NCBI GenBank assembly: GCA_049303675.1 | Contig: JBAQNJ010000001.1 | Span: 956,001 to 998,299, forward strand | Source: Microgenomates group bacterium | GTDB taxonomy: Bacteria > Patescibacteriota > Microgenomatia > UBA12405 | Length of the DNA stretch: 42,299 bases | Direction of reading: 5' to 3' | Part shown: in pieces, positions 36,769 through 38,070 of the stretch | Layout of the letters: every line of letters starts with the position of its first letter | Position numbering within the stretch: the stretch's first letter is position 1 | Made by a program: the position numbers and the translations under genes | The notes under the pieces: generated by a model | The model's database searches: none | Told to the model about the DNA's origin: nothing | The model's input: only the letters and a program-made list of their open reading frames with translations

Positions 36769-36816
36769 TAAATAGTATTTTTTTACCCTATCCACATCCA
36801 TTACACACCCCTCTCA

Positions 36817-36845
36817 TTGACATTATAGGTCCAATCTGCTACACT
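36817..36845 (+). promoter_or_regulatory. Candidate sigma70-type promoter
   Basis: TTGACA (36817-36822), a 17-nt spacer, then TACACT (36840-36845). Confidence 0.4.
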
Positions 36846-36849
36846 ATAG

Positions 36850-37381
36850 GCTAGATTAGATTGTTAATTTTGATAATTAGCTTTCGAATCTATACCTTTA
36901 GTTTATCGCTAAAGGATCTCTCTGCAAGGGTGGGGAAAATAGTTCCCACTGGAGAGTATGGGGTTGGTGGCTCCAGTAGCTTTATTCAACTCTATTCTCC
37001 AGTGTGAACTCCGTTTCCCTGCCTGCCGGCAGGCAGGTCCTTTGGCTATAAGCCAAAATCTATTGCGATTTTTCCAACACCGCGTTGGAAAACAATCAAA
37101 ATAGACGATCTTTAACAACTTGCTTTGCTTCTCCGCCATAGCTCTTTGAGCGAAGGTGGAAGCTTTTCTCTTATTTTGTGTGATATCAGTGACGACGGAT
37201 GAACATATGGTTTTCTCCAAATCGATCCATTTAGTGACAGCATATTGACATCAATTTATTTGATGTCAGCACGCTGTCACTAGAATGAAGTACTAGTGTT
37301 TGTAATGAGGGAACAGACCTCAACTATTCTTTTAACCGCCCTATGGGCATAAACTAACACGTCCTGATCAGCGTGTTTTTT
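36850..37381 (+). ncRNA. Candidate long structured noncoding RNA or leader (~530 nt), class unknown
   Basis: No convincing ORF is present. It carries a chain of hairpins (36895-36915, 36932-36947, 36947-36977 or 36947-37004, 37018-37037, 37041-37057, 37070-37090, 37232-37282). It is bounded by a promoter-like element and a hairpin plus T-run at 37356-37381. Confidence 0.3.
37356..37381 (+). terminator. Intrinsic terminator/attenuator hairpin upstream of ORF 37415
   Basis: Stem aacacgt (37356-37362) pairs with gcgtgtt (37371-37377). The loop is 8 nt, and TTTTTT follows. Confidence 0.55.
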
Positions 37382-37414
37382 AATTCGCAAATTCGCGAAT
37401 ATAAGGAGATCTCC

Positions 37415-37906
37415 ATGACTACTGAAAATTCGACCACGAAAGTCCCGTTCCACAAGCAGCCTTGGTTTTGGCTCGCCGTTGTAGCTGCAATTATCTTTTG
37501 CTGCATCTGCCCGCTTACCCTTGCCACGGTCCGCTTCATCAACAACTCTGTTGTTGTATCTGTCGTGCCCTCCGCCACTGCAATGCCTGCCCCCGCCGAA
37601 GTTGTCATTGACCAATATGCCTGCGACAATACAGTCACATCTCACTGCCTTATGCCTGGTGAAAAATGGACTGTGCCCGCTGGTTGGAACGTATCTGGCG
37701 ACATCAAAGCCAATGGTACATCCCTCTATGACAACAATGCTGAGACTGGCCTTGTCACTCACTTCATCGTAGCAACCGAAATCGAAGCCCCTTGGGGTGC
37801 CTTCGCGTCAGCTGATCTTTCTGTTGACAATATGGTTGCAAAACTGAAGGAAAGTGGCTGCGGCAGCTCATGTAAGTGGGTTATTACCAAGACCTACCCA
37901 CAATAG
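37415..37906 (+). CDS. Membrane-anchored or secreted hypothetical protein
   Basis: The Shine-Dalgarno sequence AAGGAG lies upstream of ATG 37415. The N-terminus has a TM segment (PWFWLAVVAAIIFCCICPLTLA). The region looks GC-richer than its surroundings by eye. Confidence 0.6.
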   Translation: MTTENSTTKVPFHKQPWFWLAVVAAIIFCCICPLTLATVRFINNSVVVSVVPSATAMPAPAEVVIDQYACDNTVTSHCLMPGEKWTVPAGWNVSGDIKANGTSLYDNNAETGLVTHFIVATEIEAPWGAFASADLSVDNMVAKLKESGCGSSCKWVITKTYPQ

Positions 37907-37927
37907 CAACTGCTACTCTACCAACAA

Positions 37928-37957
37928 TTCAGAGGCCAGCATCTGCTGACCTCTGAA
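37928..37957 (+). terminator. Stable stem-loop after ORF 37415-37906 (no T-run)
   Basis: The outer stem is ttcagagg/cctctgaa and the inner stem is cagca/tgctg. Confidence 0.35.
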
Positions 37958-38070
37958 CTTGGTGGGGATTTCCCCACACCCCCACACAAAAGAGAAAAGA
38001 AGAAGCAAAGCAAGTTATAGTTATGAGGATATTATTTCTCCTCATTGATAAGGCCCGAAGGCCGAAAACT

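Follow-up and report, generated by a model that had tools for sequence, protein, structure and literature searches.

Textbook accounts of ribosomal RNA (rRNA) synthesis feature boxA elements, Nus factors and leader-trailer helices. Phage antitermination sites, among them the boxA-boxB of lambda nut and the put RNA of HK022, are early RNA signals that make polymerase read through terminators, and suhB is, to our knowledge, the sole well-studied cellular mRNA with a boxA, which represses there. The leaders of bacterial rRNA operons carry boxB, boxA and boxC, form with the trailer a helix that is cut by RNase III, and are served by the Nus antitermination complex rrnTAC (PMC10250234; PMC4807359), in which, according to a published model, NusB on boxA retains the leader strand close to the RNA exit channel up to the appearance of the trailer (PMC10250234). 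A boxA has also been described upstream of a protein gene, suhB of Escherichia coli and Salmonella, and is predicted at such sites in many gamma-proteobacteria (PMC5725501), and pairing between the 5′ and 3′ untranslated regions (UTRs) of one mRNA is documented for icaR of Staphylococcus aureus (PMC3868564) and hbs of Bacillus subtilis (PMC5737220). BoxA before mRNAs and 5′/3′ UTR pairing are each already in print; our literature search found no paper on rRNA-type boxA and leader-trailer brackets round envelope-protein genes, or on the conserved helix, P1, reported here. The subject of this analysis is a ~530-nt region, free of plausible open reading frames (ORFs), that follows a promoter at position 36817 of a 42,299-nt stretch of DNA (the window) from a Microgenomates group bacterium. 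This region is probably the 5′ leader of a transcription unit built like an rRNA operon, with a surface-protein gene in the slot of the rRNA.

The window covers the final 42 kb of a genome assembled as one contig (G000; 998 kb, 39.9% GC, completeness 96.5%), and the public records that hold the core motif of the leader RNA are mostly Candidatus Shapirobacteria (Patescibacteria, or Candidate Phyla Radiation (CPR)), some being otherwise labelled. Genomes and loci are cited below by G and L handles, and related genomes are not independent samples in any of the counts. Near the middle of the region, a boxB-like hairpin stands immediately before a boxA-like element, GAUCUUUAACA (37107-37117), which agrees with the gamma-proteobacterial consensus GYUCUUUAANA (GYTCTTTAANA in DNA letters; PMC5725501) at 10 of 11 positions. 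At the same place, 16 of 30 homologous loci match the consensus exactly and ~24 of the 30 keep the core. The core CUUUAACAA is identical in the 23S leader of the same genome, where tRNA-Ala is followed by a hairpin and then by CUUUAACAAUCU, and the 16S leaders of relatives also show a hairpin and then variants of boxA.

From within boxA begins a strand complementary to a trailer that lies behind the downstream gene. This strand is split in two by an inserted GC-rich hairpin (37133-37162) that bulges between the pieces, and the trailer is preceded by two GC-rich hairpins (~37925-37981). Segments 37117-37132 and 38001-38016 form an exact 16-nt inverted repeat, and the RNAduplex energy of leader 37107-37183 with trailer 37982-38030 is -41.3 kcal/mol, versus -22.1 +/- 4.4 kcal/mol with shuffled trailers; a ranking of the trailer against all window segments was dominated by purine-rich stretches of the other strand and was not used. 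Toward the end of the leader strand, a short, boxC-like UGUGUG run (37177-37182) pairs with CACACA in the trailer; G003, L042 and L061 have comparable runs, and some loci have none. What the bracket encloses is ORF 37415-37906, with no rRNA or tRNA inside. Since the partner of the leader strand lies behind the gene, the transcript should extend across it.

The pairing is conserved as a pairing rather than as a sequence. Of 24 related loci that carry this boxA, 18 have a trailer at the equivalent position, and it begins 52-118 nt past the stop codon of the first downstream gene. Positions 5-13 of the helix are paired in 17-18 of the 18 loci, and eight of these nine positions show two to four pair types, as read from ungapped registers drawn up for this analysis instead of a curated alignment. 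Between a leader and its own trailer the match extends over 8-16 nt, and with the trailers of other genomes over a mean of 6.3 nt.

The same layout recurs in the rRNA genes of this genome. The 16S and 23S-5S genes form separate transcription units ~170 kb apart, each with a hairpin, a boxA-like site and leader-trailer complementarity. In the 16S unit, a 49-nt leader-trailer match begins directly after a degenerate boxA; the 23S-5S unit has a 24-nt match and, ~10 nt before the operon terminator, an 11-nt complement of the 3′ end of its boxA. The possibility that the region is a relic of a 16S operon was considered and rejected: in this genome and in two relatives, the 16S unit starts from a different promoter and possesses its own boxA and leader-trailer helix.

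Three further protein genes of the genome (L121-L123) have a promoter and a consensus-type boxA with an adjacent 13-15-nt strand complementary to a site at or just past the stop codon, and at least two of them also have a hairpin 5′ of boxA. At random positions, a perfect complement of at least 13 nt within 4 kb turned up in 0.7% of trials. Their products are two lipoproteins and one protein with a signal-peptide-like N terminus. The genes for NusB, Rho and RNase III (rnc) are present, nusB and rnc lying adjacent on the same strand (L070/L120, G000:C1:868781-869453).

The leader is a strongly structured RNA. Segment 36853-37430 folds with a minimum free energy of -206.3 kcal/mol, compared with -140.3 +/- 6.4 kcal/mol for shuffled sequences (z = -10.3). 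The first-pass annotation, made from the sequence alone, had proposed either a large non-coding RNA (ncRNA) or a long regulatory leader of the downstream exported-protein gene; fold, conservation and covariation across relatives bear out a real, structured ncRNA, and the pairing of leader strand 37107-37183 with the trailer behind the gene bears out a long leader. On direct reading of the sequence, all the hairpins it listed are present, as are its TTGACA-17-TACACT promoter and its terminator-like hairpin with T6. The last of these had been taken as the boundary of the region; the leader-trailer bracket extends past 37381, and the hairpin is not the end of the functional unit. Its view of the region as ORF-free also holds: the overlapping ORFs (48, 48, 103, 43 and 30 amino acids) are all short or antisense, the 103-residue one being antisense and the two of 48 residues sense, none of their frames is conserved among the relatives compared, and a Pfam search with the 103-residue ORF gave 0 matches. 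The remark that the region is GC-richer than its surroundings applies to 36900-37199 (0.457, against 0.399 for the genome), where GC-rich hairpins have been inserted and thereby raise the value, and fails for the remaining parts (~0.40-0.42).

Transcription is inferred to start near 36852-36853, just behind a sigma-70-type promoter that is invariant in five same-genus genomes. TTGACA-N16-18-TAnAnT is found in 30 of 30 related loci, ending 0-98 nt upstream of the RNA core, and 18 of those loci share a conserved block just 5′ of the -35 hexamer. A CCTATA 5′ of -35 and a TATAGG right after -10 frame the promoter (36809-36855; also the promoters of L042-L067), and in the window's genus TATAGG follows both promoter hexamers; this frame could be an operator for some regulator. 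The locus is syntenic in four same-genus genomes, and several of its RNA blocks are conserved at least as well as the flanking coding sequence. In many relatives, the 5′ hairpin of the leader is followed by a first boxA-like motif upstream of P1.

Table 1 Features of the leader, the bracketed gene and comparable units of the same genome (window positions unless a contig or genome position is given)
Feature	Position	Strand	Remarks
Sigma-70-type promoter	36817-36845	+	-35 TTGACA 36817-36822; -10 TACACT 36840-36845; spacer 17; TG before -10
5′ hairpin of leader	36853-36891	+	From fold and sequences of relatives
Left flanking hairpin	36895-36915	+	3′ arm can alternatively pair with P1 3′ base strand; homologues of different sequence in other genera
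P1, long conserved helix	36909-37050	+	Nested duplicated form; inner copy 36947-37004; match of model R1
P1 loop motif GGUGGCUCC	36966-36974	+	Loop nearly invariant
Perfect 20-nt palindrome	37018-37037	+	Inserted in P1 3′ strand; 0 expected by chance; dispersed element
Right flanking hairpin	37041-37057	+	5′ arm doubles as P1 3′ base strand; stems differ between genera yet stay paired
BoxB-like hairpin	37070-37092	+	Immediately 5′ of boxA; helix 5: 6/7 pairs compensatory, 95% of cells paired
BoxA-like element	37107-37118	+	Core CUUUAACAA at 37110-37118; single-stranded motif
Leader 5′ strand	37115-37183	+	Two pieces, 37115-37132 and 37163-37183, the second ending in the GU-rich boxC-like run
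Two-tier hairpin	37232-37282	+	5′ UTR, inside the bracket; from fold
Terminator-like hairpin with T6	37356-37381	+	Inside the leader-trailer bracket; 20 nt 5′ of the Shine-Dalgarno sequence
Bracketed gene	37415-37906	+	163-residue membrane-anchored, Cys-containing exported protein; Shine-Dalgarno 37404-37409
Trailer 3′ strand	37983-38020	+	77 nt past the stop codon of ORF 37415-37906
16S (L068)	G000:C1:303113-304611		
23S (L069)	G000:C1:130136-133337	-	
L121	G000:C1:67100-68300		Genome position 67348
L122	207850-210250		Genome position 208052; complement 14 nt with one mismatch
L123	942800-945520	-	Genome position 945321

Between the promoter and the boxB-like hairpin lies P1, a ~90-nt hairpin with a base duplex of the GGAGA/UCUCC type and GGUGGCUCC in its loop. 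A covariance model of P1 with the hairpin and boxA region (R1), built from five same-genus sequences, matches the window at 36910-37130 with 124 bits. It also matches 66 of 104 family genomes, in 24 of 29 genera, with E values down to 1e-22 outside the genus; outside the family, it matches two of 28 genomes of the order, in a search that mostly re-covered the family. Covariation, which the first-pass annotation had named as a check, is clear: for the five helices in the model (those of P1 and the boxB-like hairpin) in 31 sequences, 90.4% of cells are paired, against 41-55% with slid partners, and compensatory changes occur in 25 of 37 pairs, a result equalled by 0 of 500 shuffles. Most genomes hold one P1 core and a few have two or three in tandem. 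The tandem copies in relatives (G083:C11:15781-18781; G005:C41:2724-3206; G019:C160:3921-4370; L066) are either ~1.4 kb apart, as repeats of whole units, or ~70-330 nt apart, as repeats of the P1 hairpin.

Several known identities for P1 were tried and rejected. A small peptide was suggested by an ATG after GGAG in three genomes, where neither frame nor start is conserved. The signal recognition particle (SRP) RNA was discarded as the SRP domain IV motifs are missing from P1 (a regex search for the motifs was uninformative), and a divergent RNase P RNA or tmRNA was discarded as both genes are located elsewhere in the genome. Searches of the genome with the 6S model and the small and large bacterial SRP models, at E up to 1, gave no hit, and its 6S and SRP RNAs are either very divergent or were overlooked by the search pre-filter. 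As to its role, P1 could act as a conformational element or bind a protein, or it could be processed into a small RNA.

The window copy is long and hairpin-dense because lineage-specific hairpins have been inserted. What it has beyond its genus is a P1 whose strands occur in a second, nested copy (36916-36946 and 36975-37004), together with the perfect palindrome and the GC-rich hairpin in the leader strand. The first-pass annotation had seen a switch in segment 36947-36954, which can pair with 36971-36977 or 36997-37004 and has a hairpin (36932-36947) upstream; this mutually exclusive pairing arises from the nested duplication of P1, a design, palindrome included, that is shared with G070, of another genus, only and is not a feature of the family. 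The palindrome is missing in four same-genus homologues and stands at the same position in G070. The genome holds six exact and two one-mismatch copies of it (L021-L028) with no shared flanks, several lying ~10-300 nt from tRNA genes, and many other genera of the family have 21-25-nt matches at 100% identity that contain all or most of it.

GC-rich hairpins of one type, CCGCC...GCGAAGG...GG, occupy the same leader spot in unrelated genera (37133-37162 in the window; right after boxA in L051 and L053), and similar ones stand upstream of boxA-like motifs at genome positions 483483 and 535616. A second dispersed repeat of this genome has ~15 copies, all on the minus strand (e.g. 263789, 310810, 333167, 470334, 582209 and 608588), with a conserved ~30-nt lead-in followed by a short hairpin whose loop is CUUUAACAA, the letters of boxA.

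Downstream of the leader strand, the 5′ UTR folds into a two-tier hairpin with homologues, carrying compensatory changes, in G003 and other genera (L047, L049 and L065). In this module, conserved in several genera (37232-37302; L040, L047, L049 and L065), the outer stem GUGAYAGCA.../...GCUGUCAC is kept in sequence and the inner stem varies and covaries, and a second small hairpin lies 3′ of the first. The start of the gene reads GGAG-NN-CUCC-AUG, that is, the Shine-Dalgarno sequence, its own complement and the start codon, with an 8-10-nt palindrome in several genera (37404-37417; L040, L045, L047, L049 and L065).

The bracketed protein has no match in Pfam or NCBIfam; together with its neighbours, it gave no family from these databases and no convincing Atlas lead. 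In relatives, the gene downstream of the leader always encodes a membrane-anchored protein or lipoprotein, in which a Pro/Thr/Ala-rich linker leads to one of at least three unrelated C-terminal domains. With the leader conserved and these domains variable, a conserved leader fronts a variable surface-protein slot. Upstream, 20 loci have a gene for a galU-type nucleotidyltransferase, followed in 13 loci by one for a cell-surface protein; in the window, the latter is the gene that the first-pass annotation described as an LPXTG gene.

Some observations weigh against the view that this is an rRNA-like unit. Position 2 of the window boxA does not fit the gamma-proteobacterial consensus, and the window lacks the first boxA that relatives carry upstream of P1. 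In six of the 24 boxA loci, no leader-trailer pairing was detected, some loci being too short to show it. Complementarity of DNA alone cannot separate an RNA helix from DNA-level inverted repeats, and there are not enough wobble pairs to tell the strand. P1 itself has no counterpart in known rRNA leaders, and in G002, L046 and L058 it is directly followed by a good intrinsic terminator, so that a short P1 RNA might be produced as well.

That terminator favours an independent small or medium RNA that ends at 37381 or earlier, with P1 acting in trans and the gene expressed separately. The strong, invariant promoter would suit such an RNA, and the CUCC/UCUCC in the apical loop and 3′ strand of P1 resembles an anti-Shine-Dalgarno sequence; in a trans-acting variant, the CU-rich loop (CUCC) could, for example, pair with Shine-Dalgarno regions. 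Genome-wide complements of the loop are few and mixed, and a few start regions hold a full complement; in cis, no conserved complement lies within 1.5 kb downstream, which speaks against this explanation. So does the strand adjoining boxA, which pairs and covaries with the trailer behind the gene: the only sensible reading of a covarying leader and trailer is that one RNA spans both. Segment 37381-37415 shows no promoter of its own, and the RNA always stands in front of a membrane-anchored or lipoprotein gene. We therefore consider a free-standing small RNA unlikely.

The exact 16-nt inverted repeat round a surface-protein gene also raises the question of an inverton, in which 37115-37132 and 38001-38016 are recombinase sites that flip the gene for phase variation of the surface protein and the hairpins are partly a by-product. 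The content of the bracket differs between genomes, as an inverton would allow, and identity of the repeats within a genome is also what gene conversion would produce. The bracketed gene, however, points the same way as its promoter in all 18 related loci and at L121-L123, the left repeat always begins inside boxA, and the 16S and 23S units of the genome show the same layout. An A-A/A-A internal loop recurs at one position of the helix, the window has its 30-nt hairpin in one arm only, and no recombinase family recurs in the 1.5 kb of flanks searched. A flipping gene is thus improbable.

Another possibility, an attenuator or riboswitch, was raised by the first-pass annotation; it would sense a ligand or protein, with P1 and alternative hairpins choosing between termination and read-through at 37356-37381. 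The small hairpins beside P1 do share nucleotides with its base, giving mutually exclusive helices that recur across genera; among 22 loci folded, most form at least one of them, with differing stem sequences, when the flank is folded alone. A terminator-like hairpin precedes the gene, and one with a similar loop is found at the same place in G004, L047 and L065. Against a switch, the rod form of P1 is more stable than the alternative by 5-13 kcal/mol in the 14 loci where motif anchors were placed and energies computed, the conserved nucleotides of P1 lie chiefly in stems and one loop, not in junctions, the T run is missing in L047, and the genes are variable surface proteins without a common metabolic theme.

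Rfam covariance models likewise return nothing in the window at their gathering scores; at permissive E values up to 10 there is no credible match, only chance-level microRNA-type matches to the two-tier hairpin, and two simpler homologues gave no match either. These scans argue against both the known large ncRNA and the riboswitch that had been suggested, and we hold an attenuator to be very improbable. A decayed protein gene or non-functional spacer, to which the antisense 103-residue ORF and the two sense 48-residue ORFs might point, has next to no chance, being excluded by compensatory base-pair changes over 24 genera, with indels between close relatives that are not multiples of three, differing frames and no Pfam hit for the 103-residue ORF.

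Returning to the rRNA-like unit, the layout, motifs, covariation and machinery genes lead us to infer transcription, Nus binding, read-through, cleavage and an action of P1. Most likely, the structured leader first serves Nus/boxA antitermination, and the mRNA is then bracketed or processed in the manner of an rRNA. The strong, invariant promoter would start a highly structured RNA from which P1 emerges first, then the hairpin and boxA. NusB and S10 (NusE) would bind boxA on the nascent RNA and, with NusA and NusG, would make the polymerase resistant to Rho, to hairpins and to the weak terminator at 37356-37381. Antitermination would carry transcription over ~300 nt of untranslated, C/U-rich, hairpin-rich RNA to the gene. 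The strand that begins in boxA would then pair with the trailer, closing a helix round the message as at 16S and 23S rRNA. This helix and P1 are probable substrates of RNase III, whose cleavage would yield a defined mRNA and might also yield a small RNA from P1. We further suggest that the Nus factors could be released where the unit ends, once the trailer pairs with the 3′ part of boxA.

A complete rRNA-style bracket of hairpin, boxA and leader-trailer helix round a surface gene, with boxA and a complement at three more exported-protein genes, suggests that these bacteria use the rRNA transcription and processing machinery for envelope proteins. Together with the conservation across the family, these four genes suggest a general route for expressing envelope proteins. 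The organisms are ultrasmall, and their surface decides attachment to hosts. A fuller proposal, which we offer only as a tentative one, is that Candidatus Shapirobacteria send selected envelope mRNAs through the rRNA biogenesis pathway: Nus factors would be recruited at boxA, the leader held until the trailer emerges, the message excised by RNase III, and the Nus factors stripped by trailer-boxA pairing that ends antitermination, with P1 as a second, processed small RNA from the same precursor, in a 16S-like slot and with an anti-Shine-Dalgarno loop. P1 is a new conserved RNA motif, matched in 66 of 104 genomes, and the covarying leader-trailer pairs form a natural set for testing the "tethered leader" model of the rRNA antitermination complex.

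The locus resembles an rRNA operon leader in its order of strong promoter, hairpin, boxA and a 5′ helix strand that carries a short GU-rich run and pairs over a long range, in the partner strand just behind the enclosed gene, and in the recurrence of the same motif and layout at the genome's own 16S and 23S-5S units. It differs in that the enclosed RNA is the mRNA of a membrane-anchored exported protein, in that the helix strand starts inside boxA and not 18-19 nt after it as in Enterobacteriaceae, and in the additional conserved helix P1 before boxA. With the suhB type it shares a consensus-type boxA in the 5′ UTR of an mRNA, which points to Nus-factor action outside rRNA. In suhB, boxA lies near the start codon and represses translation, whereas here, in a CPR bacterium, it stands before envelope genes at a distance of ~300 nt and is linked to a leader-trailer helix. 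As in icaR and hbs, the 5′ and 3′ UTRs of a single mRNA pair with each other at long range, there with effects on RNase III cleavage or stability; the icaR 3′ UTR covers the Shine-Dalgarno sequence, whereas here the pairing lies far 5′ of it, abuts boxA and recurs at several genes and rRNA units. By analogy, the leader may finally be likened to phage nut and put sites, as an RNA signal early in the transcript that would act on polymerase. Unlike in lambda nut, the hairpin precedes boxA, as in rRNA operons, with no N-like protein evident, and P1 bears no likeness to HK022 put.

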